Assembly (NCBI GenBank): GCA_024709845.1
Contig: JANJVX010000146.1
Span: 1 to 56,946, forward strand
Length of the DNA: 56,946 nucleotides
Direction of reading: 5' to 3'
From: Burkholderiaceae bacterium
GTDB lineage: Bacteria; Pseudomonadota; Gammaproteobacteria; Burkholderiales; Burkholderiaceae_C
Under the pieces are notes generated by a model. It was not told where the DNA came from. It searched no databases and saw only the letters and a list, made by a program, of their open reading frames with translations. Position numbers and translations under genes: made by a program. Positions 21,065 to 52,483 of the stretch are shown here, piece by piece (position 1 is the first letter of the stretch; every line of letters begins with the position of its first letter).

Positions 21065-22495
21065 TCACACCTGCACGGCGGCCTGCGACTGGCGCTGGCG
21101 GCGTGCGTCGTAGGCGGCCAGCGTGGCCAGCAAGGCCGAGGACACGCGCGCCGTGGGACCGTCAGCGCGGCTGGTCAGCGCGATCGGCACGCGCGCGCCC
21201 AGCACGATGCCCGAGCCCGAGGCGCCCGCCAGGTACTCGAGTTGCTTGGCCAGCATGTTGCCGCTCTCCAGGTCGGGCACGGCCAGGATGTCGGCATCGC
21301 CCGCCACGTTCGACTCGATGTGCTTGATTTCGGCCGCCTGGGCCGAGATGGCGTTGTCGAAGGCCAGCGGGCCGTCGAGCAGGCCGCCCCTGATCTGGCC
21401 CCGGTCGGCCATCTTGCACAGGGCGGCGGCGTCCAGCGTGGACGGGATGTTGGGGCTCACGGTCTCCACCGCCGAGAGGATGGCCACCTTGGGTTGCTCC
21501 ACGCCCAGGATGCGCGCGAAGTCGATCGCGTTCTGGATGATGTCCTGCTTCTCCGCCAGGCTGGGGCGGATGTTGAGCGCGGCGTCGGTGATGAGCAGCG
21601 GCTTGGGGTAGAGCGGCACGTCGAAGCGGAACACATGCGACATGCGCCGCCCGGTGCGCAGCGCGGGCTGCGCCAGCACGGCCTTGATCATCTCGTCGGT
21701 GTGCAGGCTGCCCTTCATCAGCACCTCGACCTCACGGCGCGCGGCCATGCCGGCGGCCAGCTCGGCCGCAGCGTGGCTGTGTTCGACCGAGTGGATCTCC
21801 ACCCCGTCGAGGTTGATGCCTGCTTCAGCAGCCACCGCGCGGATGCGCGCCTCGGGGCCGATGAGCACGGGCACGATGAGACCGTAGTGCGCCGAATCCA
21901 TGGCGCCGCTGAGCGAGCCCACGTCGCACGGGTGCACCACGGCGCAGCGCACGGCGGGCATGCCGTCGGCCAGCGACAGCAGCTCCTTGAAGCGCGCCTC
22001 GGGGTCGAACAGCTGGATCTGCGGTGCGTTCACCTTGGGAATGCGCACCTTGGCCGTGGGCGGCAGCACCCGGGCCGTGCCGTGCAGCACGCTCTGGCCC
22101 TTCTGGTTGGTGACCAGGCAGTCGAGTTCGACACGCTTCTTCTCGTCGTCCTTGCTGGCCACCGTGACCGTCACGGTCAGCGTGTCGCCGATGCGCACGG
22201 GCTTGGTGAAGTGCAGCACCTGCTCCAGGTAGATGGTGCCGGGGCCCGGAAACTGCGTGCCCAGCAGCGCCGAGATCAGCGCGCCGCCCCACATGCCGTG
22301 GGCGATGACGCCGTGGAACAGCGTGTCGTTGGCATATTCATGGTTCAGGTGGGCGGGGTTGGTGTCGCCCGAGACGGCAGCGAAGGCCTGGATATCGGCC
22401 TGCGTGAGGGTGCGCAGCAGGCGCGCACTCTGGCCCACGCTGAGTTCGTCGTAGGTGACGTTTTCCAGCCATTCGGTGTTCGGTGCCATGTTCAT
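21065..22495 (-). CDS. Bifunctional MaoC-like (R)-enoyl-CoA hydratase / phosphate acyltransferase
   Basis: SGDTNPAH..IAHGM hydratase motif followed by MKGSLHT, LSAVE, DGPLAFDNA, ESGNMLAK, LTSRAD. Confidence 0.92.
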   Translation of the reverse strand: MNMAPNTEWLENVTYDELSVGQSARLLRTLTQADIQAFAAVSGDTNPAHLNHEYANDTLFHGVIAHGMWGGALISALLGTQFPGPGTIYLEQVLHFTKPVRIGDTLTVTVTVASKDDEKKRVELDCLVTNQKGQSVLHGTARVLPPTAKVRIPKVNAPQIQLFDPEARFKELLSLADGMPAVRCAVVHPCDVGSLSGAMDSAHYGLIVPVLIGPEARIRAVAAEAGINLDGVEIHSVEHSHAAAELAAGMAARREVEVLMKGSLHTDEMIKAVLAQPALRTGRRMSHVFRFDVPLYPKPLLITDAALNIRPSLAEKQDIIQNAIDFARILGVEQPKVAILSAVETVSPNIPSTLDAAALCKMADRGQIRGGLLDGPLAFDNAISAQAAEIKHIESNVAGDADILAVPDLESGNMLAKQLEYLAGASGSGIVLGARVPIALTSRADGPTARVSSALLATLAAYDARRQRQSQAAVQV

Positions 22496-22597
22496 GTTGC
22501 GGAAATCCTTAAAAAATCAGAGCGGATGCATGCAGATGAGAATTCAACCAGATGACCCGGCGTTGAAAACGGGCGCGACACAGGGGGGCGCTTCATT

Positions 22598-23377
22598 TCA
22601 CGCCACTGCGTGACAGCCGCCATCGACATAGATGGTCTGGCCGGTCATGCCGGAGGATGCATCGCAGCACAGGAAGGCGCTGAGCTGGGCGATTTCCTCC
22701 AGCGAGACCAGGCGCTTGAGCGGTGCCTTGAGCACGGCGTTGGCCATCAGCTCGTCAAAGCTGGCAATGCCCGAGGCCGCCCGTGTCAGGATGGGGCCGG
22801 GCGACACGGCATGCACACGGATGCCCTGCGGCCCGAGTTCGAGCGCCATGTAGCGCACCAGCGATTCGAGCGCGGCCTTCACCGGGCCCATCAGGCCGTA
22901 GTGCGGCACGGCCTCTTCGGCGCCGAGGTAGGTCATGCTCAGCAGGCTCCCCCCCTGGGCCATGTGCGGCACGCACAGCCGGGCCAGTTCGGCGAACGAG
23001 TGGCACGACACCTCCATGGCCCGCGAAAAGCCTTTGCGCGAGCTGTCGGTCACCCGGCCGTGCAGGTCCTCCAGCGGCGCCCAGGCGATGGAGTGGATCA
23101 CGAAATCGAGCCGTCCCAGGCGCTGCGCGGCGTGTGCCACCAGGGCTGCGAGCTCGCCGTCCTGCTCGACGTTGCAGTTCACCAGCTCCACCTCCAGCGG
23201 ATCGGTCAGCGGTTCGACGTAGCGGCGGGCCTTTTCGTTGAGGCAGGACACCACCAGCTCGGCGCCCATCTGGCGGGTCAGCTGGGTGCAGCCCCAGGCG
23301 ATGCTGCTCTCATTGGCCAGGCCCAGGATCAGGCCCTTCTTGCCCGCCAGGCTGAAGGGATTGTTCTTTTTCGTCAT
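22598..23377 (-). CDS. fabI: Enoyl-ACP reductase FabI-like
   Basis: GLANESSIAWG, HSIAWAP, YGLMGPVKAALE, SPGPILTRAASGI. Confidence 0.88.
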   Translation of the reverse strand: MTKKNNPFSLAGKKGLILGLANESSIAWGCTQLTRQMGAELVVSCLNEKARRYVEPLTDPLEVELVNCNVEQDGELAALVAHAAQRLGRLDFVIHSIAWAPLEDLHGRVTDSSRKGFSRAMEVSCHSFAELARLCVPHMAQGGSLLSMTYLGAEEAVPHYGLMGPVKAALESLVRYMALELGPQGIRVHAVSPGPILTRAASGIASFDELMANAVLKAPLKRLVSLEEIAQLSAFLCCDASSGMTGQTIYVDGGCHAVA

Positions 23378-23462
23378 GTGTTGCGGATTTCAGGAAACAG
23401 GGTCAAGCGCGGCGCCGTGGTGTGACCGATGCACGCACCACGCACGCCAACGCCGGGGGGAG

Positions 23463-23900
23463 TCAGTCTGGGTCGAAAAGCCGCCGAAGGTTGGCGCCGT
23501 CCGCACCCGGCCTGAAGCCTTCGCGCACGAGTTGCTCCTGCGCCGACACCAGGATGTGGCGCGCCGCATCGAAGCCCACGCGGCCCACGTAGCTGCGGGC
23601 CACGCCGTAGCGCAGCACCAGCAGGCCGCGCAGCTCCTCGCGCATATGGGATTTGCGGCGGTCCGTGCTCATGCCGGTGCGGGGCGCAGCGCGGCGGTCG
23701 GGCGTGACCCGCCGGTCCGGCACGGGCACGCGCACGGCGTCGATATGCAGCACCTGCTCCAGCTCGGCGTCGTTGTCCAGGTTCACCCCCAGGGCCACGG
23801 CCAGGCGCGCGATGCGCGCGCTCAACGCGTGCGCCGAGTCGCCCATGCGGCGCAGATGGTCCGCGACCGGATCGTCCCCCGCGTGGCCATCAATCGGCAT
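23463..23900 (-). CDS. Hypothetical protein with DRR repeats
   Basis: Overlaps the phaC 3' end, co-oriented in the operon; PDRRVTPDRRAAPR..TDRRK. Confidence 0.65.
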   Translation of the reverse strand: MPIDGHAGDDPVADHLRRMGDSAHALSARIARLAVALGVNLDNDAELEQVLHIDAVRVPVPDRRVTPDRRAAPRTGMSTDRRKSHMREELRGLLVLRYGVARSYVGRVGFDAARHILVSAQEQLVREGFRPGADGANLRRLFDPD

Positions 23901-25710
23901 AGCGCACCATGACGTATTCACCGGGCGCGTCGCACAGCACTTGGGCCGGGTCCATGGGCGGCGGCGCCACCGGCTTGCCCGAGCGCGCCTTGAGCCAGTC
24001 GTCCATGGCCTCCCACCAGGAACCCTCGCGCACGGGGGCGTTGGCCTCCCACTCGTCAGGGCCGGTCCAGCCGTGGCCGTCTTCGGTGGCCGCGATCTGG
24101 TAGCTGCGCCGGGGGCGGCCCGGCTCGGAAACGATACCGGCGTTGTGCCCGCCCGCGGCCAGGATGAAGGTCACGTGCGTGTCGGTCTGCAGATGGATCT
24201 TGTAGACCGAGCGCCAGGGCGAGACATGGTCGCGCGTGGTGCCCACCACCAGCATGGGCGCATGAATGTCCATGAGCGCCACGCCCACGCCGTCCACACG
24301 GTAGTGGCCCGTGGCCAGCGCATTGTTGAGGAACAGCGACGACAGGTACTCGGAATGCATGCGCGCGGGCAGGCGTGTGACGTCGGCGTTCCAGCTCATG
24401 AGGTCGAAGTCCACCTCGTCCTGGCCCAGCAGGTAGCGGCGTGTGCTGCGCGACCAGACCAGATCGCGCGCATTGAGGAACTGGAACGAACCGGCCATGG
24501 CCTTGCCCGAAAAATAGCCTTTGCGCTCCATGTCCTGGCGCAGCGCCTGGATCTGGTCGTCGTCGATGAAAACGCCCATCTCGCCCGGCTCGCTGAAATC
24601 GGTCTGCGCCGCCAGCAGCGTGACGCTGGCCAGTTCGGGCAGCCGGTCCAGACCGCTGGCGTCCTCGCGCCGGCGATGCGGCGCTTTTCTGTGCTTTGCA
24701 CGGCTGCGGTGCCCCAGGGCGGCGGCCACCATGGCCAGGAAGGTGCCGCCCAGACAGTAGCCCAGCGCATGGATGCGTGGCGCCTTCGTGCGCTCCTGGA
24801 TGGCGGCCATGGCCTCCATCACACCCAGGCGCAGGTAATCCTGCATGCCCAGGTCGCGGTCGGAGGCATCGGGGTTGCGCCACGAGACGATGAACACCGT
24901 GTAGCCCTGGCCCACGAGGTAGCGCACCATGGAGTTGGCGGGCGAGAGGTCCAGGATGTAGTACTTCATGATGCACGAGGGCACGATGAGCAGCGGCTCC
25001 GGATAGACCTTGGCCGTCGTGGGCGCGTACTGGATCAGCTCGATCAGATGGTTGCGGAACACCACCTTGCCGGGCGTGACGGCCACATCCTTGCCCACCT
25101 CGAAGGTGAGCGGTTCCAGTGTCTGCGCCCCGTCCCCCGGCTCGGCACCATGGTGCTTCTTCAGGTCTTCGGTGAACTTCTGGTAGCCATTGAGCAGGCT
25201 TTGCCCGCCGGTCTCGCGTGCACGCTGCTGCGCCTCGGCATTCGTGAACGGCCAGTTGGAGGGCGACAGCGCATCGAGCGTCTGCCGGGTGAAAAACTCC
25301 ACCACATGCTGGTGGTGCCGCGTCATGCCATCCACCTGGGCGGCCTCGCGCCACCAGGCATCGCTGGCCTTGAATCCCTCCTTCAGGGCATTGAAGGGCC
25401 AGAGCTGCCAGCTTTCATCGCGAAAGCGCGCATCCTTTTCGGGCAGGGCAGCCCCCTGCTCATCGGCGGGCGGACGCACCGACGCCAGCCACGCCTGCTG
25501 CGCCAGCGCCAGCGCGCGCTGCCCCAGCACCATCTGGCGCCCCGGCGACAAGGCCAAGTGCATGGCCCAGTCGGCTGCGGCCAGCGCCATGGATACCGGC
25601 GAAAGCCCCATGCTGGCCCGCGCCATCTGGGCCTGAACGCTTTCATCCAGGGCCTTGGCGGTCTGGCGCTGCCGCTCATACAGTGACGCCGGGGAAGCTT
25701 GCTTGTCCAT
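23890..25710 (-). CDS. phaC: Polyhydroxyalkanoate synthase (class I-like)
   Basis: TPGKVVFRN..ELIQY, IMKYYILDL, SWRNP, lipase box GYCLGG, DHVSPW, GGHNAGI, GSWW. Confidence 0.93.
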   Translation of the reverse strand: MDKQASPASLYERQRQTAKALDESVQAQMARASMGLSPVSMALAAADWAMHLALSPGRQMVLGQRALALAQQAWLASVRPPADEQGAALPEKDARFRDESWQLWPFNALKEGFKASDAWWREAAQVDGMTRHHQHVVEFFTRQTLDALSPSNWPFTNAEAQQRARETGGQSLLNGYQKFTEDLKKHHGAEPGDGAQTLEPLTFEVGKDVAVTPGKVVFRNHLIELIQYAPTTAKVYPEPLLIVPSCIMKYYILDLSPANSMVRYLVGQGYTVFIVSWRNPDASDRDLGMQDYLRLGVMEAMAAIQERTKAPRIHALGYCLGGTFLAMVAAALGHRSRAKHRKAPHRRREDASGLDRLPELASVTLLAAQTDFSEPGEMGVFIDDDQIQALRQDMERKGYFSGKAMAGSFQFLNARDLVWSRSTRRYLLGQDEVDFDLMSWNADVTRLPARMHSEYLSSLFLNNALATGHYRVDGVGVALMDIHAPMLVVGTTRDHVSPWRSVYKIHLQTDTHVTFILAAGGHNAGIVSEPGRPRRSYQIAATEDGHGWTGPDEWEANAPVREGSWWEAMDDWLKARSGKPVAPPPMDPAQVLCDAPGEYVMVRYAD

Positions 25711-25910: not shown

Positions 25911-26885
25911 ATGGCCGAAACATCCTCCTCGCCCCGCCCCCTGGCCCCGCCCCTGTTCGAGGTTCGTCACCTGAGCAAGCGTTATGGCGAGACCACCGTG
26001 GTCAACGACGTCTCGTTCTCCATGGCCCCCGGTGAATGCCTGGGCGTCATCGGACCCAATGGCGCGGGCAAGACCACCACCATCCGCATGTGCCTGGGCC
26101 TGACGGCGCCCGACGGCGGCAGCATCCATTACCAGCCTGCGGGCGGCGGCCCGCTGCTGCAAATGCCGCGCGACGCCCTGGCCATCAAGGCCGAGATCGG
26201 TGTGGTGACGCAGTTCGACTCGCTCGACCCCGACTTCACCTGCCTGGAGAACCTGCGCGTGTTCGGCCGTTACTTCGGCCTGGGGCCCCAGGTGATGGAC
26301 GAACGGGCACCCCAGTTGCTGGAGTTTGCCGCGCTCACGCACAAGGCCCATGCCAAGCCGGGCGAGCTGTCGGGCGGCATGAAGCGGCGCCTGTCACTGG
26401 CGCGGGCGCTGGTCAACGCACCGCGCCTGCTGCTGCTCGACGAACCCACCACCGGGCTGGACCCGCAGGCACGCCACCTCATGTGGGAGCGGCTGCAGCG
26501 CCTGGTGCAGCAGGGCACCTCCATCTTGCTGACCACGCACTTCATGGACGAGGCCGAGCGCCTGTGCTCGCGCCTGCTGGTGCTCGACCACGGCCGCAAG
26601 ATCGCCGAAGGCGCGCCGCGCGCCCTGATCGCCGAGCACCTGGAGCCCGAGGTGGTGGAGGTGTACGGCGCGGGCGCCCTGGCGCTGGCGCACGACGCCG
26701 CCCTGCAGTCCCTGGCGGCACGCACCGAGGTCAGCGGCGAGACGGTGTTCTTCTACACCCGCGCAGCGCGCCCCCTGCTCGACGCACTGCTGCAGCACCC
26801 GCACCTGCGCACGCTGCACCGGCCGGCGAACCTGGAGGATTTGTTCCTCAAACTCACCGGACGGCAAATCCGGGAGGATGGTTGA
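25911..26885 (+). CDS. ABC exporter ATP-binding protein (NodI-like)
   Basis: GPNGAGKT, LSGGMKRR, LDEPTTGLDPQARH, TTHFMDEAERLC, ANLEDLFLKLTGR. Confidence 0.92.
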   Translation: MAETSSSPRPLAPPLFEVRHLSKRYGETTVVNDVSFSMAPGECLGVIGPNGAGKTTTIRMCLGLTAPDGGSIHYQPAGGGPLLQMPRDALAIKAEIGVVTQFDSLDPDFTCLENLRVFGRYFGLGPQVMDERAPQLLEFAALTHKAHAKPGELSGGMKRRLSLARALVNAPRLLLLDEPTTGLDPQARHLMWERLQRLVQQGTSILLTTHFMDEAERLCSRLLVLDHGRKIAEGAPRALIAEHLEPEVVEVYGAGALALAHDAALQSLAARTEVSGETVFFYTRAARPLLDALLQHPHLRTLHRPANLEDLFLKLTGRQIREDG

Positions 26886-26898
26886 CCGCGCCTGAAAC

Positions 26899-26961
26899 GC
26901 TCCTGAAACAGGAGCTATCAGCGCTTACCAAATAAGCGCTAGAGGCCAATTTAACCCTCAA
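26899..26961 (+). repeat. Repeat family A copy 6; contains the purT stop codon
   Basis: gctcctgaaacaggagct-atcagcgcttaccaaataagcgctaga-ggccaatttaaccctcaa. Confidence 0.9.
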
Positions 26962-28175
26962 ACCTGGCGTGGCCGGACCGTGCCGGCCGCGAGCTTGGGG
27001 TGGGTGCGCGCGGTGTCCACATCGCCCGCGCGCGCCAGCGCGACGCCCATGCGCCGCTTGGCAAAGCTCTCGGGCTTGCCGAACAGGCGCAGGTCGGTGC
27101 CGGGCACGCGCAGCGCCTCATCGACACCATCGAACACGATGCCCGCCGCCTCCACGCCGCCGTAGATGACGGCGCTGGCGCCGGGATTGCGCAGGCTGGT
27201 GTCCACCGGCAGGCCGAGGATGGCGCGCGCGTGCAGCTCGAACTCGCTCTGGTGCTGGGTGCACAGCGTGACCAGACCGGTGTCGTGCGGGCGCGGGCTG
27301 ACCTCGCTGAACCAGACCTGCTCGCCCTGGACAAACAGTTCCACGCCGAACAGCCCCTGGCCGCCCAGGTTGCCGGTCACGGCACGGGCGATCTGGCGGG
27401 CCTTCTCCAGCGCCGCCGGGTGCATGGGGTGCGGCTGCCAGCTTTCCACATAGTCGCCACTCACCTGCACATGGCCGATGGGGTCGCAGAAATGCGTTTC
27501 GATCTGGCCGCCTTCGCCCACAGCGCGCACCGTCAACAGCGTGATCTCGTAGTCGAAGTCGATGAAGCCCTCGACGATCACACGCCCATGGCTCACGCGA
27601 CCGCCGGCCATGGCGTAGTCCCAGGCTTTCTGCACGTCACCAGGGCCGTCGATCTTGCTCTGGCCCTTGCCCGAGCTGCTCATCACGGGCTTGACGATGC
27701 AGGGGTAGCCCACGCCTTTTTCACCGTTCACGCCATCGATCGCGGCCTGCAGCTCGGCCAGCGAGTCGCAGAAGCGGTAGGGGCTGGTGGGCAGGCCCAG
27801 CGTCTCGGCGGCGAGGCGGCGGATGCCCTCGCGGTCCATGGTCAGGCGCGCAGCGCGGGCCGTGGGGATCACGCGCACCACACCCGCGGCCTCCAGTTGC
27901 TCCAGCATGGGCGTGGCGATGGCCTCGATCTCGGGCACCACCAGGTGCGGGCGCTCGGTCTCGATCAGGGCCTTGAGCTGCGCCGGGTCGCTCATGGCGA
28001 TGGTGCGCGCGTGGTGCGCCACCTGCTGGCCGGGGGCGTGGTCATAGCGGTCCACGGCGATGGTCTCCACGCCCAGGCGCTGCAGGGCGATCAGCACCTC
28101 CTTGCCCAGCTCGCCCGCGCCGAGCAGCATGACCTTGGTGGAATGGGGAGTGAGCGGGGTGCCGAGGGTTGTCAT
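26958..28175 (-). CDS. purT: Formate-dependent phosphoribosylglycinamide formyltransferase
   Basis: [61 protein letters not shown]. Confidence 0.97.
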
Positions 28176-28284
28176 GGGGCCGTGGGAGGGAGAAGGATAC
28201 TGGCGCCTACTGTAATCGAGCCCCCACGCCGGCGCGCCGCGCGGGCCGAGGACAGACCGGCAGCAATTGCGCACAATACGCGCC

Positions 28285-29109
28285 ATGTCTTCCATCCCCC
28301 TGACCGGCGCCCCTCCCGCCTCGCACTGGCGCCCGCCCGGCCTCTCGCTGCGCTGGTGGCCGGTGTTCCTGCGCAACCTGCTGGTGTGGCGCAAGCTCGC
28401 CATCCCGAGCCTGGTGGGCAACATCGCAGAGCCGTTGATGTGGCTGGTGGCCTTTGGCTACGGCATGGGCGCGCTCGTGGGGCAGATGCAGGTGAACGGG
28501 CAGGCCGTGCCCTACATCCTGTTCCTGGCCAGCGGTTCGATCTGCATGAGCGCCATGAACGCCGCCAGCTTCGAGGCGCTGTACTCGGCGTTCTCGCGCA
28601 TGCATGTGCAGAAAACCTGGGAGGGCATCATGAACACCCCCGTGGGGCTGGACGACGTGGTGCTGGCCGAGATGCTCTGGGCCGCCTTCAAGGCGCTGTT
28701 CACGGTCACGGCCATCATGGGCGTGATGCTGGCGCTGGGCATCAGCCACAGCCCCAAGCTGCTCGTGGCCTGGCCGGTGCTGCTGTGCGTGGGCATCATG
28801 TTCTCCAGCATCGCGCTCATCTTCAACGCGCTGGCCAAGGGCTACGACTTCTTCACCTACTACTTCACGCTGGTGCTCACACCCATGATGTTCCTCTCGG
28901 GCGTGTTCTTCCCGCGCGAGCAGCTGCCCGCCGTGGTGCGGCACATTTCCGACTGGCTGCCGCTGACCAATGCCGTCGAGCTGGTGCGCCCGCTGTTCAT
29001 GGACCAGTGGCCCGCACACCCGCTGCGCCATGGCCTGGTGATGGTGCTTACCACCGCGCTCGCCTACTGGGTCGCACTGGCCCTGACGCGCCGCCGCTTC
29101 GCCGCCTGA
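28285..29109 (+). CDS. ABC-2 permease (NodJ-like)
   Basis: [44 protein letters not shown]. Confidence 0.9.
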
Positions 29110-29114
29110 GCACC

Positions 29115-29615
29115 ATGACTGCGCCCGCCCTGCTGAGCCCGGAACACATCGCCATGGTGGACCGGGGCGTCTCGGTGATCGTGGCCTCGCGCAACGACGC
29201 GCTGCGCCCCAGCCTCATGCGCGGCGTGGGCAGCGCCATCAGCGCCTGCGGTACGCAGGTCACCGTGTACCTGCGGCGCAGCCAGTCGCGCCAGCTGCTG
29301 CAGGACATCGAGGCCGGGGGCGGGGTCGCGGTGGTGTTCAGCGAGCCGCCCACGCACCGCACGCTGCAGCTCAAGGCCCGCGCGGCCACGCTGCGCCCTG
29401 CTGCACCGGCCGACCAGCCGCAACTGGACCGCTACCTGGCCTCGATGCAGTGCGAACTGGCACCGGTGGGCTACGGGCCGCAGTTCGCGGCCGCCATGCT
29501 CGCGGCACCGCTGGAGGACGTGGTGGCGGTGCAGTTCACGCCTGAAAGCGCCTACGACCAGACGCCGGGCCCCCGCGCCGGCGCCCCGCTGGACGCCCCG
29601 AAGGCCAGACCATGA
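29115..29615 (+). CDS. Small split-barrel (pyridoxamine-phosphate-oxidase-like) protein
   Basis: VIVASRNDALRPSLMR...VAVVFSEP..TLQLK...YDQTPGP pattern; ATGA coupling to the next gene. Confidence 0.65.
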   Translation: MTAPALLSPEHIAMVDRGVSVIVASRNDALRPSLMRGVGSAISACGTQVTVYLRRSQSRQLLQDIEAGGGVAVVFSEPPTHRTLQLKARAATLRPAAPADQPQLDRYLASMQCELAPVGYGPQFAAAMLAAPLEDVVAVQFTPESAYDQTPGPRAGAPLDAPKARP

Positions 29616-30967
29616 CCGCCCCTTCGCTGCACTCCATCCGCCCTTGCCTGGAGGGCGCCATTCCAGCCATCATGGCCACCTGCGCCAGCGACGGCACACC
29701 CAACGTGGCCTACATCTCGCAGGTGGTCTATGTGGACGAGGGCCATGTGGCCCTGTCCTTTCAGTTCTTCAACAAGACACGCGCCAACATCCTGGACAAC
29801 CCGCACGCCTCGGTGCTGCTGCTCGACCCGGTGACGGCGCGTTTTTATCGCCTGCACCTGCGCTACCTGCGCACCGAGACCGGCGGCGCGCTCTTCGAGA
29901 GCATGAAGGCGCGGCTGGCGGGCATCGCCTCGCACACCGGCATGGCCGAGGTGTTCCGCCTCAAGGGCTCGGACGTGTATGCGGTGGAGCACATTGACGC
30001 CATCGACGGCGAGGGCCTGCCGCCCGCGCCCTGCCGTACCGGCCTGCTGCACCGCCTGCGCCAGTGCAGCCAGCGCATGGCCGCCTGTACCGGGCTGGAC
30101 GACCTGCTGCAGACCGCCCTGGCCTGCCTGCGCGATGCGCTGGGCATCGGGCATGCCATGGTGCTGCTGCTCGACACGCCGGCCCAGCGTCTCTACACCG
30201 TCGCCAGTTGTGGCTACGCCACGTCGGGCGTGGGCTCGGAGATTGCACTGGGGCACGGCGTGATCGGCGTGGCCGCGCGCGAGAACACACCGGTGCGCAT
30301 CAGCCACATGACGCACGCCGCCCTCTACAGCCACGCCATGCGCAGCAGCCTGCAGGCCGGCAGCGCGGACGGCCCGGCGCTGGTGCCCGGCACCGAGATT
30401 CCCTACCCCGGCCTGCCCGAACCCCACAGCCAGCTCGCCGTGCCCATGGTGGCCGCGGGCCGCGTGCTGGGCGTGCTGTTCGTCGAAAGCCCGCGCGACA
30501 TGGCCTTCGACTTCGAAGACGAGGACCTGCTGGTGGCGCTGGCCGGGCATCTGGGGGCCGCCATCGACCTGCTGCAGGCCGCGCCGGAGACGGGCGAGGC
30601 CACCGCTCCGGCTACGGCGCAGGCGCCTGTGCTCGGCGGCACCCCTGTGCGCGTGCGCCACTACCCGGCCAATGACAGCGTGTTCATCAACGACGACTAC
30701 CTGATCAAGGGCGTGGCCGGGGCCATTTTCTGGAAGCTGCTGCGCGACTACACGCAGGCCGGGCGCACCGAGTTCAGCAACCGCGAGCTGCGGCTCGACC
30801 CCTCCATCCGCCTGCCCGACGTGGCCGACAACCTGGAAGCGCGCCTGCTGCTGCTGCAGCGCCGCCTGCAGGAGAACAACCCGCCCATGCGCCTCGAAAA
30901 AACCGGGCGCGGGCGCTTCCGCCTGTGCGTGGCCTGCCCGGTGCTGTTGGAAGAGCAGCCGGGCTGA
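29612..30967 (+). CDS. Split-barrel + GAF + C-terminal winged-helix putative transcriptional regulator
   Basis: ATCASDGTPNV..FFNKTRANI (PNPOx-like); GHGVIGVAA..LAVPM..VLGVLFVE..FDFEDE (GAF); FSNREL..NLEARLLLLQRRL..LEKTGRGRFRL (OmpR-like wHTH). Confidence 0.78.
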   Translation: MTAPSLHSIRPCLEGAIPAIMATCASDGTPNVAYISQVVYVDEGHVALSFQFFNKTRANILDNPHASVLLLDPVTARFYRLHLRYLRTETGGALFESMKARLAGIASHTGMAEVFRLKGSDVYAVEHIDAIDGEGLPPAPCRTGLLHRLRQCSQRMAACTGLDDLLQTALACLRDALGIGHAMVLLLDTPAQRLYTVASCGYATSGVGSEIALGHGVIGVAARENTPVRISHMTHAALYSHAMRSSLQAGSADGPALVPGTEIPYPGLPEPHSQLAVPMVAAGRVLGVLFVESPRDMAFDFEDEDLLVALAGHLGAAIDLLQAAPETGEATAPATAQAPVLGGTPVRVRHYPANDSVFINDDYLIKGVAGAIFWKLLRDYTQAGRTEFSNRELRLDPSIRLPDVADNLEARLLLLQRRLQENNPPMRLEKTGRGRFRLCVACPVLLEEQPG

Positions 30968-30971
30968 GCAC

Positions 30972-31703
30972 TCACTGGCCGGCTGCGGCGCCCATCCCCA
31001 GGCCCACCATGAGCTTGGCCCACTCGCGCGCGGTGAGGTGCGGGCGCACCACATCCAGCACCGCGCCGAACGCCTCGCCAGGCACCTGCTGGCGCATGCC
31101 GCCGAGCAGGGCCAGGCGCTCTGCGGGCGCCATGAAAGGCACCATCCAGCGCATCACCAGCATCATCTCGCCGGGCGGAATCGAAGACACCAGCGCGTCG
31201 TGCACGGCCATCAGCTCGCCGTCGGTGTAGTGCTGCCACAGCGCTGCGTTGTGCGCGGTCTCTTCGATGTGCATGTGCTCGAAGTTGTGCGCCACGAACA
31301 GCGCCAGCGCGTGGTACAGCGCCTGGGCGCGCGGTGCGCGGTCGGCGCGCGTGCAGGCCATCAGGTCGGCCACGGCGCGCACCAGGCGCAGGATGGAGCG
31401 CTCATGCTCCTCGTGCTCGTCTGCCACGGCGTGGCTGCCGCCCTGGGCACGGGCTTCGATGGCCGGGTGCACAAAGGTGTTCTCGTGCTCCAGGTGGGCC
31501 TGGCACACATCGAGCAGCTGGGCCACGCGCTGGCAGCTCTGGGCAAAGTCCAGGTCGTCCTCCACGTCCATGCGGCCCAGGCCGAGCAGGGTATCGGCCA
31601 TGAAGGCGCGCAGGGCCTTGTGGATACCGGCGTACAGGTCCACGCGCGGTGCGGCGGACTGGGTGGCGGCGACTTCGGCAATTTCTCGGGGTTCGATCTT
31701 CAT
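30972..31703 (-). CDS. Hemerythrin (HHE) domain protein
   Basis: IHKALR, HLEHENTFVHP, EHEEH, HMHIEE di-iron ligand pattern. Confidence 0.82.
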   Translation of the reverse strand: MKIEPREIAEVAATQSAAPRVDLYAGIHKALRAFMADTLLGLGRMDVEDDLDFAQSCQRVAQLLDVCQAHLEHENTFVHPAIEARAQGGSHAVADEHEEHERSILRLVRAVADLMACTRADRAPRAQALYHALALFVAHNFEHMHIEETAHNAALWQHYTDGELMAVHDALVSSIPPGEMMLVMRWMVPFMAPAERLALLGGMRQQVPGEAFGAVLDVVRPHLTAREWAKLMVGLGMGAAAGQ

Positions 31704-31793: not shown

Positions 31794-31859
31794 AGTCTAG
31801 AAATCGCCGCCTTCGCGCGCTGCTAAAAATCCCTTAACCGAACCCTATTCCATTCTTAA
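31794..31859 (-). promoter_or_regulatory. Putative activator-dependent promoter of the hemerythrin gene
   Basis: -10 TAGACT (31799-31794), poor -35, four pentamers at exact 11-bp spacing (31822, 31833, 31844, 31855). Confidence 0.55.
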
Positions 31860-31892
31860 AAACGCCATCGTCCGTCATTTGCGTGAAATCCA

Positions 31893-33467
31893 TCACACCG
31901 CCGCGCGCACCATGTCTACCGCCTTTTCCGCGATCATGATCGTGGGTGCGTTGGTGTTGCCGCTGACGATGCGCGGCATGATGGACGCATCGACCACGCG
32001 CAGGCTCTGCACGCCGCGCACGCGCAGCTGCGCATCGACCACGTCGTGCTCGCCCGGCCCCATGCGGCAAGTACCCACCGGGTGGTAGATGGTGTCGGCG
32101 TGCTGGCGGATGAAGGCCTCGATCTCGCTGTCGGACTCCAGCACGGGCGCGCTGCCGTAGCGCGCCAGCGCGGGCTGCGCCAGGATCTCCTGCATGCGCC
32201 GGAAGCCATGCACCATGCGGTCCATGTCGGCGCGCTCGCCCAGGAAGTTCGGGTCCACCAGCGGCAGCGCTCTCGGGTCGCCGCTGGCGAGCTGCACGCT
32301 GCCCCGGCTCACGGGCTGCAACAGGCAGACATGGCAGGAATGGCCATGGCCCAGCACCGTCTTGCGGCCATGGTCCACGAGCTTGCCGATGACGAAATGC
32401 AGCTGCACGTCGGGCGCTGTTTCGCAGGGCTGGCTGCGGATGAAGCCCCCCGCCTCGGCGAAGTTGGTCGTCAGCATGCCGCTGCGCCGCTGGCGCCATT
32501 CCTGCACGCCACGCACGATGCGCGCCACGCCGGGCAGGGAGATGCCGAACAGCTCGCTCTGCCCCGGCGCATCGACCACGCGCACCACGTCGGGATGGTC
32601 GTGCAGGTGCGCGCCCACACCCGGCTGGTCGTGCAGCACGGCGATGCCGTGGCGCTGCAACTGTGCGCCGGGGCCGATGCCCGAGAGCATGAGCAGCTGC
32701 GGCGACAGCAACGCACCCGCGCTCAGCAGCACCTCGCGCCTGCAGCGCAGCTGCTGCAGGCGGCCACCCTGGCGGAACTCCACGCCCACGGCGCGGCGCC
32801 CGTCGAACAGCACGCGCGTGGCGTGCGCCCCGGTGAGCACCTGCAGGTTGGGCCGCGCCAGGTGCGGCGTGAGGTAGGCCTTGGCGGCGCTGAAACGTTC
32901 GCCATCGCGGTGCGTGACCTGGTATTCACCCACGCCTTCCTGGGTGGCGCCGTTGAAGTCGCGGTTGTGCGCATGGCCCGCCTGCACGCCTGCTTCGACG
33001 AACACACGGCCGAAGCGGTTGGGCGAGCGCAGGTCCATCACGTTGAGCGGGCCGCCCGTGGCGTGCCAGGCGTCGGCGCCGCGCTCGTTGTTCTCGGACC
33101 TCAGGAAGTAGGGCAGCACATCGGCCCAGCCCCAACCCGGATTGCCCTGCGCGGCCCAGTGGTCGTAGTCCTGCGGCTGGCCGCGCGCGTAGATCATGGC
33201 GTTGATGGAGCTGGAGCCGCCCAGCACCTTGCCACGCGGCTGGTAGCCCCGGCGGCCGCCCAGGCCCGGCTGCGGGGTGGTGTTCAGCCCCCAGCCGTTA
33301 AGCATGTACTTGGCCATCACGGCCAGCCCTGCCGGGCAGTGGATGAGCACGCTTGCGTCCGCCGGGCCCGCTTCCAGCAGGCACACGCGCACGGCGGGGT
33401 CTTCGCTCAGGCGCCCGGCGAGCACGCAACCGGCCGAACCGCCACCCACCACGATGTAGTCGAACAT
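31893..33467 (-). CDS. GMC oxidoreductase (choline/alcohol dehydrogenase-like)
   Basis: GGGSAG, RGKVLGGSSSINAM, SPQLLMLSGIG, YHPVGTCRMG, GNTNAPT; GGAGG SD before ATG 33467. Confidence 0.92.
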   Translation of the reverse strand: MFDYIVVGGGSAGCVLAGRLSEDPAVRVCLLEAGPADASVLIHCPAGLAVMAKYMLNGWGLNTTPQPGLGGRRGYQPRGKVLGGSSSINAMIYARGQPQDYDHWAAQGNPGWGWADVLPYFLRSENNERGADAWHATGGPLNVMDLRSPNRFGRVFVEAGVQAGHAHNRDFNGATQEGVGEYQVTHRDGERFSAAKAYLTPHLARPNLQVLTGAHATRVLFDGRRAVGVEFRQGGRLQQLRCRREVLLSAGALLSPQLLMLSGIGPGAQLQRHGIAVLHDQPGVGAHLHDHPDVVRVVDAPGQSELFGISLPGVARIVRGVQEWRQRRSGMLTTNFAEAGGFIRSQPCETAPDVQLHFVIGKLVDHGRKTVLGHGHSCHVCLLQPVSRGSVQLASGDPRALPLVDPNFLGERADMDRMVHGFRRMQEILAQPALARYGSAPVLESDSEIEAFIRQHADTIYHPVGTCRMGPGEHDVVDAQLRVRGVQSLRVVDASIMPRIVSGNTNAPTIMIAEKAVDMVRAAV

Positions 33468-33563
33468 ATCCGCCTCCTCCGTGTTTGACACACCTTAACC
33501 CAAAGAGAGGGTCAATGCCGCTACGATGGCGGCTGTTGTTTCACTTTGAAGAGAGCACTCCAC

Positions 33564-34412
33564 ATGAGCATTTCCACGGTTGGCATCATCGGCGCAGGCA
33601 CCATGGGCAACGGCATCGCGCAGGCTTGCGCGGTCTCGGGCATCAACGTCGTCATGGTCGATATTTCTGACGCTGCTGTCCAGAAGGGCCTGGCGACCGT
33701 GTCCGGCAGCCTGGACCGCCTGATCAAGAAGGAAAAGATCACCCAGGCCGACAAAGACACGGCCCTGGCGCGCATCAAGACCTCGACCAGCTACGACGAC
33801 CTCAAGGCCGCGCAGCTCGTCATCGAAGCTGCCACCGAGAACTACGAGCTCAAGCTCAAGATCCTCAAGCAGGTCGATGGCATCGTCGGCCCCGAGGTCA
33901 TCATTGCGTCGAACACCTCGTCGATCTCCATCACCAAGCTGGCGGCCGCCACCAGCCGCGCCGACAAGTTCATCGGCATGCACTTCTTCAACCCGGTGCC
34001 GATGATGGCGCTGGTGGAGATCATCCGTGGCCTGCAGACCAGCGACGCCACGCACGACGCCGTGAAGGCGATGGCGCTGGCGCTGGGCAAGAGCCCCATC
34101 ACCGTGAAGAACGCCCCGGGCTTCGTGGTCAACCGCATCCTCGTGCCCATGATCAACGAGGCCTTCTTCGTGCTGGCCGAAGGCCTGGCCACGCCGGAAG
34201 ACATCGACGCCGGCATGAAGCTGGGCTGCAACCAGCCCATCGGCCCGCTGGCCTTGGCCGACATGGTGGGCCTGGACGTGTGCCTGGCCGTGATGGATGT
34301 GTACCTCGCCGAGTTCGGCGACAGCAAGTACCGCGCCTGCCCGCTGCTGCGCGAAATGGTGGCTGCCGGCCGCCTGGGCCGCAAGACGGGCAGCGGCGTT
34401 TACCAGTACTGA
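33564..34412 (+). CDS. 3-hydroxybutyryl-CoA dehydrogenase
   Basis: GAGTMGNGIA, IEAATE, ASNTSS, GMHFFNP, PGFVVNR, GPLALADMVGLD, GRKTG. Confidence 0.93.
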   Translation: MSISTVGIIGAGTMGNGIAQACAVSGINVVMVDISDAAVQKGLATVSGSLDRLIKKEKITQADKDTALARIKTSTSYDDLKAAQLVIEAATENYELKLKILKQVDGIVGPEVIIASNTSSISITKLAAATSRADKFIGMHFFNPVPMMALVEIIRGLQTSDATHDAVKAMALALGKSPITVKNAPGFVVNRILVPMINEAFFVLAEGLATPEDIDAGMKLGCNQPIGPLALADMVGLDVCLAVMDVYLAEFGDSKYRACPLLREMVAAGRLGRKTGSGVYQY

Positions 34413-34430
34413 GCCCCGCGCTCCCCTGCC

Positions 34431-34458
34431 AGGCCGGGCGGTTTCGTCCGGCCTTTTT
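34431..34458 (+). terminator. Rho-independent terminator
   Basis: aggccgggcg-gttt-cgtccggcct hairpin followed by a T run. Confidence 0.8.
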
Positions 34459-34467
34459 CATTGCGTT

Positions 34468-34530
34468 TTCATGATCAAAACGCCCTGTAGCGCCCGCCCA
34501 TCAAGCGCCAATAGCTCTATTTTCAGGAGC
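34468..34530 (-). repeat. Repeat family A copy 7
   Basis: Reverse complement gctcctgaaaatagagct-attggcgcttgatgggcgggcgctaca-gggcgttttgatcatgaa. Confidence 0.82.
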
Positions 34531-34568
34531 ATTTGACGCTATGCCCCTTCATTTCAGAGGGCCTTCCG

Positions 34569-34596
34569 GCAATTCAATTGCACACAATTTAATTGC
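34569..34596. promoter_or_regulatory. Tandem OhrR operators
   Basis: GCAATT-C-AATTGC and ACAATT-T-AATTGC resemble the OhrR box TACAATT-N-AATTGTA; immediately upstream of ohrR. Confidence 0.8.
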
Positions 34597-34613
34597 TGCC
34601 AATAATTCATCCC

Positions 34614-35075
34614 ATGCCCACCGAACACACCACCGACAGCCCCAGCCCCCCCCTCCTGTGGCTCGACAACCAGGTCTGCTTCGCGCTGTATTCGACCTCG
34701 CTGGCGATGACCAAGCTCTACAAGCCGCTGCTCGACGCCATCGGCCTGACATACCCGCAGTACCTCGTGATGCTGGTGCTGTGGGAGCAGGACGGGCCCA
34801 CCGTCTCCGAACTTGGCGAGCGCCTGTTCCTCGACTCCGGCACGCTGACGCCGCTGCTCAAGCGCCTGGAAGCCTCGGGCCTGGTGGCGCGCCAGCGCGA
34901 CCCGCAGGACGAGCGCCGCGTGCGCATCACCCTCACCCCCAAGGGCCGCGCGCTGCGCGATGACGCCGAGAGCGTGCCCGCCTGCGTGCTGCGCGGCAGC
35001 CGCACTGCCCTGCCCGAACTGCAGGCGCTGACGCGCCAGCTGCAGGCCCTGCGCACCCAGCTCGCCCAGGTCTGA
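34614..35075 (+). CDS. ohrR: MarR-family organic hydroperoxide sensor OhrR
   Basis: [43 protein letters not shown]; second C-terminal Cys. Confidence 0.92.
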
Positions 35076-35125
35076 ACCCATTCACCCCCCGCCCGTACCG
35101 GGCACCACCCGCAAAGGAAAGCACC

Positions 35126-35542
35126 ATGGCCTCCCTCGACAAAGTCCTCTACACCGCCCGCGCCCACACCACCGGGGGCCGCGACGGCGCCTCACGCACC
35201 GACGACGGCCGCCTCGACGTGAAACTCTCCTCTCCCGGCACCTCGGGCACCGGCACCAACCCCGAGCAGCTGTTCGCTGCTGGCTACTCGGCCTGCTTCA
35301 TCGGCGCGCTCAAGGCCGTGGGCGGCATGCAGAAAATCGCCATCCCGCAGGACGTGGCCGTGGACGCCGAGGTGGACCTCGGCCCCATCACCGGCGGCTA
35401 TGGCATCGCCGTGCGTCTGCAAGTGCACCTGCCCGGCATGGACCGCGCCGCCGCCCAGGCGCTGGTGGACGCGGCCCACAAGGTCTGCCCCTACTCCAAC
35501 GCCACGCGCGGCAACATCGATGTGACGCTGACCCTGGCCTGA
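35126..35542 (+). CDS. ohr: Organic hydroperoxide resistance protein
   Basis: [33 protein letters not shown]. Confidence 0.96.
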
Positions 35543-35612
35543 TTTCGCCCCGGTGTCGCGCAGGCGGCCCGCCGGGCTTGAGCCCGGGCGCCGCTTGCCC
35601 TACCGTTGCCGC

Positions 35613-36704
35613 ATGAACACCACCACCCTGCTCGTGCGCCAGGACGCCCTGGCCAGCACCACGCTGCGCAGCACCGAACCCGCCCCGCTGGCCGACGGCC
35701 AGGTGCGCGTGCGCGTCGATCGCTTTGCGCTCACCGCCAACAACATCACCTATGCCGCCATGGGCGAGATGCTGGAGTACTGGCGCTTCTTCCCCTCGGG
35801 CGAGCCGGGCTGGGGCATCGTGCCGGTGTGGGGCTTCGGCACGGTGGCCGAATCGCTGCACCCCGATGTGGCGGTGGGCGAGCGGCTCTACGGCTACTGG
35901 CCCATGGCAACCGAGGCAGTGCTCCAGCCCCACAAGGCAACTGCCACAGGCTTTGCCGACGGTGCCACGCACCGTACCGGCCTGCACCCTGTCTACAACC
36001 ACTACCTGCGCTGCGGCGCCGACCCGTTCTACCACCCGGACACCGAAGACATCCAGGCCTTGCTGCGGCCGCTGTTCATCACCTCCTGGCTCATCGACGA
36101 CTTCCTGGCCGACCAGGGTTTCTATGGCGCGGGCACACTGCTGCTGTCCAGCGCATCGAGCAAGACCGCCTACGGCACAGCCTTCCAGCTCGCACAGCGC
36201 GCAGGCGTGCAGGTGGTCGGCCTCACGTCCAGGGCCAACCAGGCGTTTTGCGAAAGCCTGGGCTGCTACCACCGCGTGGTGACCTACGAAGACCTGGAAC
36301 AGATCGCCGCCGAAACGCCCTGCGTCTACATCGACTTTGCGGGCAGCGTGGCGCTGCGCCAGCGCATCCACCAGCATTGCACGCAACTCGCCTACAACTG
36401 CGCCGTGGGCGCCAGCCATGTGGGCGACCTGGGCGGCGCCGGGCAGCTGCCCGGCCCGCGCCCGGTGATGTTCTTCGCCCCCGCACAGGTGAAGAAGCGC
36501 ACGGGTGAATGGGGCACGCAGGGCCTGAACGACCGCCTGGTGGCAGCCTGGCAGGCCTTCAGCAGCGCCGTGCAGGCGCCACCGCAGCCCTGGATCACCG
36601 TGCAGCACCACCAGGGGCCGCAGGCCACGCAAGCATTGTTCCTGGAGCTGCTGCGCGGCCAGGGCGATCCGCGCACAGGCCACATCGCCCGCATGCGGCC
36701 CTGA
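35613..36704 (+). CDS. DUF2855 family protein (MDR-like fold)
   Basis: FALTANNITYA..YWRFFP, PVWGF, LLRPLFITSWL, SSASSKTA, FFAP. Confidence 0.75.
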   Translation: MNTTTLLVRQDALASTTLRSTEPAPLADGQVRVRVDRFALTANNITYAAMGEMLEYWRFFPSGEPGWGIVPVWGFGTVAESLHPDVAVGERLYGYWPMATEAVLQPHKATATGFADGATHRTGLHPVYNHYLRCGADPFYHPDTEDIQALLRPLFITSWLIDDFLADQGFYGAGTLLLSSASSKTAYGTAFQLAQRAGVQVVGLTSRANQAFCESLGCYHRVVTYEDLEQIAAETPCVYIDFAGSVALRQRIHQHCTQLAYNCAVGASHVGDLGGAGQLPGPRPVMFFAPAQVKKRTGEWGTQGLNDRLVAAWQAFSSAVQAPPQPWITVQHHQGPQATQALFLELLRGQGDPRTGHIARMRP

Positions 36705-51772: not shown

Positions 51773-52483
51773 CTATTGCATCACGCTCGACCGGAGCGCG
51801 GCAAGGTCCAGCACCCGCAGGCCGCCGTATTCGACCCGGATGGCCCCTTGGGCTTCGAGCGCCGCCAACGCCTCGTTGACCCGCTGGCGCGACAGCCCCA
51901 CCAGATAGGCCAACTCCTGCTGGGTGATGCGCAGCACCTCGCCCACTCCAGGGTACAGCGCCGAATTGAACAGTGCGGCCAGGCTGCGCGCCACGCGCGC
52001 GTCGGGGTTGTTCAGCCGGTCGATCTCGCGCGCTGCAATGAATTGACCCAGGCGCTCGTTGAGCTGGTTCATGACGTAGCGGTTGAAACCGATGGAGTGG
52101 TCCAGCAGCCAGTGAAACGTGTCGATGGGCAGCCCTGCCACCACGCTCTTGCGCAGGGCCTGCACGTTGTAGCGATACGGCTCACGCTTGACCACCGTGC
52201 CTTCACCAAACCAGCCACCGGGCGGCAGGCCGGCAAAGGTCATCGTGCCGCCGTCCGCGTTGTCGTTGCTCATCTTGAGCAGCCCCTCGATGACGCCGAA
52301 CCAGTAGGTGACGGGCCGCCCGATGCGGCAGACGTAGTCGCCCGCACGGGCATCGCCCACCAGCAGGGCCGCCATGGCGCGCTCACGCTCGACCGGCTGC
52401 AACAGGGGCAGCCAGGGAATACCGGCCAGTTCATCGGGCGTGGGCTGGCGGCGGCGGTGGTGCAATGACAGTTCCTGGTTCAT
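51773..52483 (-). CDS. Crp/Fnr family transcriptional regulator
   Basis: cNMP-binding-like GGWFGE; HTH ITQQELAYLVGLSRQRVNEAL. Confidence 0.93.
   Translation of the reverse strand: MNQELSLHHRRRQPTPDELAGIPWLPLLQPVERERAMAALLVGDARAGDYVCRIGRPVTYWFGVIEGLLKMSNDNADGGTMTFAGLPPGGWFGEGTVVKREPYRYNVQALRKSVVAGLPIDTFHWLLDHSIGFNRYVMNQLNERLGQFIAAREIDRLNNPDARVARSLAALFNSALYPGVGEVLRITQQELAYLVGLSRQRVNEALAALEAQGAIRVEYGGLRVLDLAALRSSVMQ

Follow-up and report, generated by a model that had tools for sequence, protein, structure and literature searches.

The winged-helix fold of OmpR/PhoB-type effectors, represented by BaeR (PDB 4b09), GlnR (8hml), AdeR (5x5l), CpxR (4uht), PmrA (4s04), and PhoB (1gxp), is the nearest known counterpart of the DNA-binding domain of the regulator considered here; PhoB recruits RNA polymerase at pho boxes. 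The same type of DNA-binding domain is used without phosphorylation by the one-component regulators CadC (5ju7), ToxR (8b4b), and TcpP (9gdr), and SARPs are also one-component OmpR-type regulators. These proteins have membrane anchors or other sensor domains and carry the winged helix at the N-terminus; ToxR and TcpP additionally need a partner from a neighbouring gene. The locus described here lies in a stretch of 56,946 nucleotides from a Burkholderiaceae bacterium (contig JANJVX010000146.1; the whole stretch is called the window below) and consists of three genes: a small partner gene for a 166-aa predicted split-barrel protein (29115–29615, + strand), a gene for a 451-aa regulator (29612–30967, +), and a gene for a 243-aa protein identified through Pfam as hemerythrin-like (31703–30972, −). 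The TGA of the small open reading frame (ORF) shares bases with the ATG of the 451-aa ORF in an ATGA overlap, and the convergent stops of the regulator and hemerythrin ORFs are separated by 4 bp (30968–30971); the coupling, convergence, and lengths are as described in a first-pass annotation made from the sequence alone. Unlike OmpR/PhoB effectors, the regulator has no receiver domain at its N-terminus, which is occupied by a split barrel and a GAF domain; its input consists of barrel, GAF, and partner, and no histidine kinase gene adjoins the locus within the window by Pfam/NCBIfam and neighbourhood analysis (an unlinked kinase was not sought). Its winged helix is only 7–17% identical to those of the effectors and has no Trans_reg_C match. 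Unlike CadC, ToxR, and TcpP, the regulator looks cytoplasmic, carries its winged helix at the C-terminus, and appears to pair with its partner through split barrels.

Split-barrel proteins such as Swol_0183 (3in6), YviC (7eg5), HupZ (7kpz), and HutZ (3tgv) are typically homodimers; the regulator shares their fold and, in the model described below, their dimer across the barrel face. Unlike these proteins, it is predicted to form a heterodimer and is joined to a DNA-binding domain. According to PMC11602992, members described to date act as enzymes, carriers, or sensors of heme. In a literature search that covered few subscription papers, no description of the regulator family was found, nor any case of a DNA-binding protein that senses through a split-barrel heterodimer. 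The hemerythrin-like protein presumably also resembles the plant BRUTUS/HRZ domains; its only PDB matches, obtained with its profile, are to the hemerythrin-like domain of FBXL5 (3v5x, 3u9j; E 2e-8). Unlike FBXL5 and BRUTUS, it is a stand-alone bacterial protein with a C-terminal extension of ~70 residues and no ligase part. The di-iron centres of BTS and FBXL5 react with O2 (PMC12022348).

The favoured reading, to which a probability of roughly 0.55 is given, is that a two-subunit activator turns on the hemerythrin gene by binding the repeats that precede it, likely via the redox state of a flavin or a redox-active compound. Its observed basis is the three folds of the regulator, the gene coupling, gene fusions, the repeat array, the 22-bp spacing between array and −10 box, and the tracking of the regulator by the array; from these we infer binding, activation, cofactor, and signal. 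The barrels would dimerise, the regulator giving the K55-T56-x-x-N59 half and the partner the Q85-x-K87/Q149 half of a single cofactor site, and a flavin held between them would change redox state or meet a redox-active compound. The small subunit would touch an insertion of the GAF domain (residues 234–238), a possible signal route, with the GAF domain serving as relay or second pocket. The winged helices would bind head-to-tail on four repeats, the last of which would replace the −35 box, and RNA polymerase would be recruited; in some species a CRP-family protein may provide further input. What the activator controls would be a small oxidative or detoxifying regulon, in most genomes a single operon, of which the di-iron protein is the most frequent member. 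The regulator most likely acts without phosphorylation, behaving like PhoB at a pho box and yet not being a response regulator. A broader proposal is put forward tentatively, at somewhat less than even odds: that these proteins form a widespread undescribed class in which two unlike split barrels contribute a half each to one flavin site, the cofactor being held only by the heterodimer and gating an OmpR-type winged helix without phosphorylation. The main target would be a free-standing bacterial protein related to the iron/oxygen-sensing domain of FBXL5, and a CRP-family protein would cooperate.

Three domains were assigned in the regulator. Pfam recognises PNPOx_N at residues 9–82 (E 7e-9) and GAF at residues 160–319 (E 1e-14), and the AlphaFold model has a mean predicted local distance difference test (pLDDT) of 91.5 and a predicted template modelling score of 0.90. 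The split barrel (residues ~1–135; 29612–30016, +), with conserved S36, Q51, and K55-T56-x-x-N59, matches 3in6 (Z 16.6), HupZ (Z 14.6), and YviC (Z 13.9). Residues ~141–325 (30032–30586, +) match GAF domains, most closely that of PtsP (Z 20.6), and contain no conserved Cys. The C-terminal 110 residues (342–451; 30635–30967, +) have no Pfam/NCBIfam match at E 0.1 and no meaningful PDB sequence match; folded by itself, this domain reaches a pLDDT of 93, and the top 14 of its 48,161 structural matches are all OmpR/PhoB-type proteins or their DNA-binding domains, the best being BaeR (4b09; Z 10.5, root-mean-square deviation 2.6, 96 aligned residues). Foldseek also puts the OmpR/PhoB family first, with no match at E ≤ 0.001. 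The predicted recognition helix (408–422) and wing (R433-G434) are the most conserved region of the regulator family. Pfam and structural matches for the first two domains, and fold comparison for the C-terminus, support the PNPOx-like, GAF, and OmpR-like composition proposed in the first-pass annotation.

The family is large and patchily distributed: 7368 matches were obtained among 7994 candidates, there are 464 clusters at 50% identity with E ≤ 1e-30, and the regulator occurs in 13/401 genomes of the phylum, 13/351 of another class, and 33/201 of the family. Comamonas, Simplicispira, and Acidovorax encode close homologues, and named records extend to Bdellovibrio and Acidimicrobiales. Relatives were not found in a viral collection, and a metagenome scan queried with a distant fused protein gave two matches, both unrelated GAF proteins. 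If the assignment is true, thousands of records named "GAF domain-containing protein" or "adenylate cyclase" are transcription factors with a DNA-binding domain missed by Pfam. The adenylate cyclase label of source records was rejected, no cyclase domain being found in Pfam scans. A free methionine-R-sulfoxide reductase (fRMsr) was also considered, as 3mmh matches the fold at Z 19.4, but fRMsr activity needs catalytic cysteines in the GAF domain, and here no Cys is conserved. Several representatives of ~400–640 aa with odd C-termini look like frameshifts and are left out of the count of new architectures. One metagenome record (P0254), which may be a chimera, joins barrel and GAF to a Ser/Thr kinase instead of a winged helix, and regulator genes broken by stops or frameshifts (L107, 5032–6383; L150, L151, L015, and L035) reflect decay or assembly errors.

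The small partner is tied to the regulator by position, by fusion, and by modelling. Its gene is directly upstream of the regulator gene in 80/80 close loci (the 80 highest-ranking out of 521 matches, hence close kin) and in 22/22 more distant ones, in neighbourhoods compared within Pseudomonadota. It is fused to the regulator N-terminus in 8 of 150 representatives; one such fusion recurs in 13/15 listed cluster members (657–663 aa), most of the others are single records, and two fused proteins contain two PNPOx_N stretches. Modelled together, small protein and regulator score 0.92 in three runs, which share at least 90% of contacts, with a partner pLDDT of 90; the best of three controls scores 0.00. 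The mark used for such scores is reached by 116/157 solved and 2/215 mismatched pairs, a calibration that applies roughly here (own alignments, FMN included). The modelled interface is barrel-on-barrel, formed by regulator residues 51–55 and partner residues 85, 87, and 147–157, with regulator GAF residues 234–238 also in contact. Because of the fusions and the complex model, a heterodimer of the two barrels, as the first-pass annotation had supposed, is predicted with high confidence. The small protein's invariant residues are Q85, K87, and Q149-x-P-G-x-x-A-G156. That it is PNPOx-like, another claim of that annotation, is suggested by the fusions, by the complex model, and by its Atlas cluster, in which PF01243 is found on 16% of members; it has no Pfam match of its own and no PDB sequence match, and its profile matches the regulator barrel weakly (20% probability, E 0.001; 2% in another comparison).

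The hemerythrin promoter contains a predicted operator of four direct repeats with an 11-bp period (31822–31859, −): TTAAG (31859–55), ATAGG (31848–44), TTAAG (31837–33), and TTAGC (31826–22). A spacer of 22 bp separates the last repeat from a predicted −10 box, TAGACT (31794–31799, −), which places the inferred transcription start at ~31787. A consensus promoter scan gave no sigma-70 site there, as would be expected without a −35 box. Tandem direct repeats with an 11-bp period beside a −10 box that lacks a consensus −35 make this predicted site resemble those of OmpR/PhoB response regulators, whose repeats recur every 10–11 bp. The layout of repeats and −10 box is kept in 72/74 hemerythrin promoters, and TA occurs 22–23 bp after the last repeat in 22/33 arrays against ~1.2 expected, the 11 misses including several arrays with a mis-assigned last repeat that were still counted as misses. 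The last repeat lies at about −39 to −35 relative to the inferred start and no consensus −35 is present, so activation is the likely mode; the sequence evidence makes it very probable that the regulator binds this array and only slightly less so that it is an activator rather than a repressor. The array is the only one found in this genome (79% complete), in which no wider regulon was found. With partner, operator, and −10 box mapped by prediction, the system is directly testable with a reporter.

Further upstream is a palindrome, TGTGA-N6-TCACG (31882–31897, −), centred 102.5 bp from the inferred start. Palindromes of the form YGTGA-N6-TCACR, which we take to be CRP-like, are centred at −102.5 in 17/74 promoters and at −113.5/−114.5 in 5/74 (0.03 expected), two positions that differ by one helical turn. 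In the window the palindrome and the stop codon of the gene before it share bases; the palindrome is also found where that gene is absent (L013). It is a candidate second input. Nine CRP-family matches were found in this genome, and a CRP/FNR-family regulator is encoded in the window at 51791–52000 (−), 20 kb from the trio.

Across genomes, the array follows the regulator. With a scoring matrix trained on comamonad promoters and arrays called at a score of at least 24, 23/34 other loci have an array, and two of these loci belong to the same family; the reversed controls reached 26.8 once and otherwise stayed at or below 18.5. Downstream of these 23 distant arrays lies a gene for hemerythrin in 15 cases, for an FMO-like monooxygenase in 4, and for a receiver protein in 1, and the other 3 precede a cupin-arylamine N-acetyltransferase operon; because 8 of 23 head other genes, the array follows the regulator rather than hemerythrin. 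The trio is present in the environmental strain Acidovorax sp. GW101-3H11 (L004), and Rhizobium etli CFN 42 has the cupin-acetyltransferase target (L112). In five of five further genomes, drawn from other classes or families, six exact pair matches occur, every one of them at the regulator locus. In the family sample of 201 genomes, the pattern with at most one mismatch occurs in 21/33 genomes with the regulator and 0/168 without it, and with at most two mismatches in 25/33 and 7/168. The array also stays with unlinked targets in three genomes (G012, G880, and G904), in the last of which it precedes a diheme-cytochrome operon; the SO2930-like diheme cytochrome after that TTAAG array (L160:3263-5185) matches TIGR03806 below the cut-off. 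Control of the hemerythrin gene by the winged-helix protein, as first suggested from the sequence alone, is backed by this conserved array that tracks the regulator.

The pairing of regulator and hemerythrin exceeds chance: in the phylum sample of 401 genomes, 13 have the regulator, 12 have hemerythrin, and 11 have both, which, with the partner upstream in every close locus, bears out the co-occurrence of the trio. In the family sample, 33/33 regulator-bearing genomes have hemerythrin, and 16/49 hemerythrin genomes lack the regulator. Eight hemerythrin genes were recovered from 7 of these 16 regulator-less genomes; 7 of the 8 have no array, and 5 of the 8 match another promoter motif, TGGCYCCTTCRGGCGATG-like, that is absent from the 80 linked loci. 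Because regulator-less copies have another motif and one of them lies beside a LuxR gene, hemerythrin appears to be the cargo of at least two regulators; judged from sequence, it is the commonest target and not an obligate part of the system. The TGGCYCCTTCRGGCGATG-like motif is found upstream of hemerythrin in L140, L164, L170, L177, L178, and L179, often with ATGGCCC repeats. In L177 a 993-aa MalT-like LuxR gene adjoins hemerythrin, and homologues of it are present in 4/5 genomes tested; the G894 hemerythrin cluster beside the LuxR gene also encodes a diheme cytochrome (L177:6770-7843) 53% identical to that of G904. The MalT-like LuxR gene and the motif may mark a second, unstudied regulon whose targets overlap with those of the first.

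The 243-aa protein itself matches Pfam Hemerythrin (PF01814) at residues 22–148 (E 4e-6) and shows the His / HxxxE / His / HxxxE ligand pattern of HHE di-iron proteins; H28, H70, E74, H79, H97, H100, H143, E147, and E148 are invariant in 60 sequences. An inducer of the system would give the first functional clue for this uncharacterised bacterial hemerythrin family close to FBXL5. Genes that may belong to the hemerythrin operon occur in L097 (7088–9044), L100, L027, L075, and L171; the possible operon mates include 2-oxoacid dehydrogenase E1 alpha/beta, glycine-rich repeat proteins with signal-like N-termini, a DUF5122 beta-propeller, and an NmrA-like protein.

The nature of the signal is approached through the barrels. 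The best PDB sequence match of the regulator barrel profile is 3in6 (E 1e-5), which binds flavin mononucleotide (FMN), and the K-T-x-x-N motif of the regulator aligns with the same motif in 3in6; HupZ and HutZ lack that lysine. The small protein has no K-T-x-x-N motif, but has the invariant Q85, K87, and Q149. Split-barrel structures bind their cofactor at the dimer interface, and from this we infer by analogy that Q85/K87/Q149 of the partner and K-T-x-x-N of the regulator are two halves of one FMN site. Across 76 diverse regulators no His, Cys, or Met is invariant, and for that reason a heme gas site is not indicated; H45 is conserved in 84% and H181 in 76%. The latter is the best candidate for a heme-ligating His in the GAF domain, as in gas sensors of the DosS/DevS type, where that ligand is invariant. 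On these sequence features a flavin site in the barrels is likelier than a heme site, and the chance that flavin is the sensing cofactor is put at about even.

Several observations weigh against this reading. Membership of the split-barrel superfamily does not imply FMN binding (PMC11602992), and the heme binder HupZ is a near structural match of the regulator barrel, at Z 14.6 vs. 16.6 for 3in6. Split-barrel dimers are common in the PDB, and resemblance to homodimers of solved structure may account for the complex score. The two-by-two counts overstate the association, since the array pattern came from loci linked to the regulator and related genomes are not independent; 10/33 matrix-scored loci from regulator-bearing genomes have no array at a score of at least 24, of which one neighbours an array-bearing locus and two show three repeats by eye. 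One genome in which the regulator pair is deleted at this locus (G732) retains an array in weakened form (score 31.7; linked loci have a median of 55.6 and a 5th percentile of 38.7), and in another (G736) an array is directed at the 3′ end of the regulator gene itself, without any gene in between. The PmrA box, given as CTTAAG-N5-XTTAAT in PMC3973317, is similar to the repeat, and a regulator-less genome (G784) has a PmrA/QseB-like gene with such an array. In L163 (174–2496), a PmrA/QseB-like response regulator-kinase operon has a four-repeat TTAAG/TTAAC array upstream, and the barrel regulator is missing from the genome. In L165 (5003–6856), a clean deletion has removed the small gene and the regulator from between the hemerythrin and NodJ-like genes; the array there is weakened, and the −10 box and CRP-like site are kept.

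The alternative that survives best, unlikely as it is, retains the same activator and operator and replaces the signal with a small organic molecule (an amine, an arylamine, or another compound on which the target enzymes act) that would occupy the GAF pocket or the cleft of the barrel; the paired barrels would then be structural or pre-process the ligand. PtsP and NifA-type GAF domains, which are metabolite sensors, are the closest to that of the regulator, whose motifs G201-Y202, G208-x-E210, P266-G-L268, and S273-Q-x-A-x-P278 are well conserved, and the alternative targets (FMO-like monooxygenases and operons of cupin, arylamine N-acetyltransferase, and YceI) would suit such a signal; however, redox stress fits as well with a di-iron protein as the commonest target and diheme cytochromes as another, and the barrel retains a motif shared with an FMN-binding protein.

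A heme- or metal-based sensor of O2 or NO dedicated to hemerythrin, the narrow version put forward in the first-pass annotation, is quite improbable. Heme binders (HupZ and HutZ) are among the barrel matches, di-iron proteins, heme proteins, and enzymes that use O2 are among the targets, H45 and H181 are fairly conserved, and a CRP/FNR-family-like site lies upstream in 22/74 promoters; these points are met by the lack of any invariant His, Cys, or Met, by the absence of H45 from the modelled interface residues, and by targets that extend beyond hemerythrin. A specifically O2/NO-sensing module is not supported, there being neither an invariant heme ligand nor an obligate hemerythrin target.

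It is more doubtful still that the small protein is an inhibitor that caps the regulator barrel and blocks the homodimer for tandem DNA binding until a signal releases it. The modelled small protein does cover the canonical dimer face of split barrels, and translational coupling would fit a 1:1 pair of regulator and inhibitor; the fusions in 8/150 representatives fit a permanent partner better, although a tethered inhibitor is possible. Least probable is that an ordinary PmrA/QseB-type response regulator from another locus binds the array, with the neighbouring regulator controlling something else: against the PmrA-like half-sites, the G784 operon, and the weakened array of G732 stand the absence of the strict pattern from all 168 regulator-less genomes, the lack of an array upstream of any of the five genes for OmpR-type proteins detected in this genome, the movement of the array to whichever gene flanks the regulator, and the array-free state of 7/8 hemerythrin genes from seven regulator-less genomes.

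A NodJ-like permease gene ends 5 bp before the start of the small gene, and in this genome the small gene and regulator are probably co-transcribed with it. In the window the trio has NodI/NodJ-like ABC genes, a gene for PurT, and one for a GMC oxidoreductase as its neighbours. NodI, NodJ, GMC oxidoreductase, and Ohr were considered as parts of the system and rejected, being present in only 36, 45, 33, and 17 of the 80 close loci, respectively. The purT gene (26958–28424, −) sits between the NodI-like (25911–26885) and NodJ-like (28267–29109) genes, a gap that is filled by other genes in relatives. Farther away, genes named from translations alone at 21065–25710 (−) encode a MaoC-phosphate acyltransferase fusion, a FabI-like protein, and a PHA synthase-like protein, and at 33546–36704 (+) there are a 3-hydroxyacyl-CoA dehydrogenase-like gene, a MarR/Ohr-like pair, and a DUF2855 gene.

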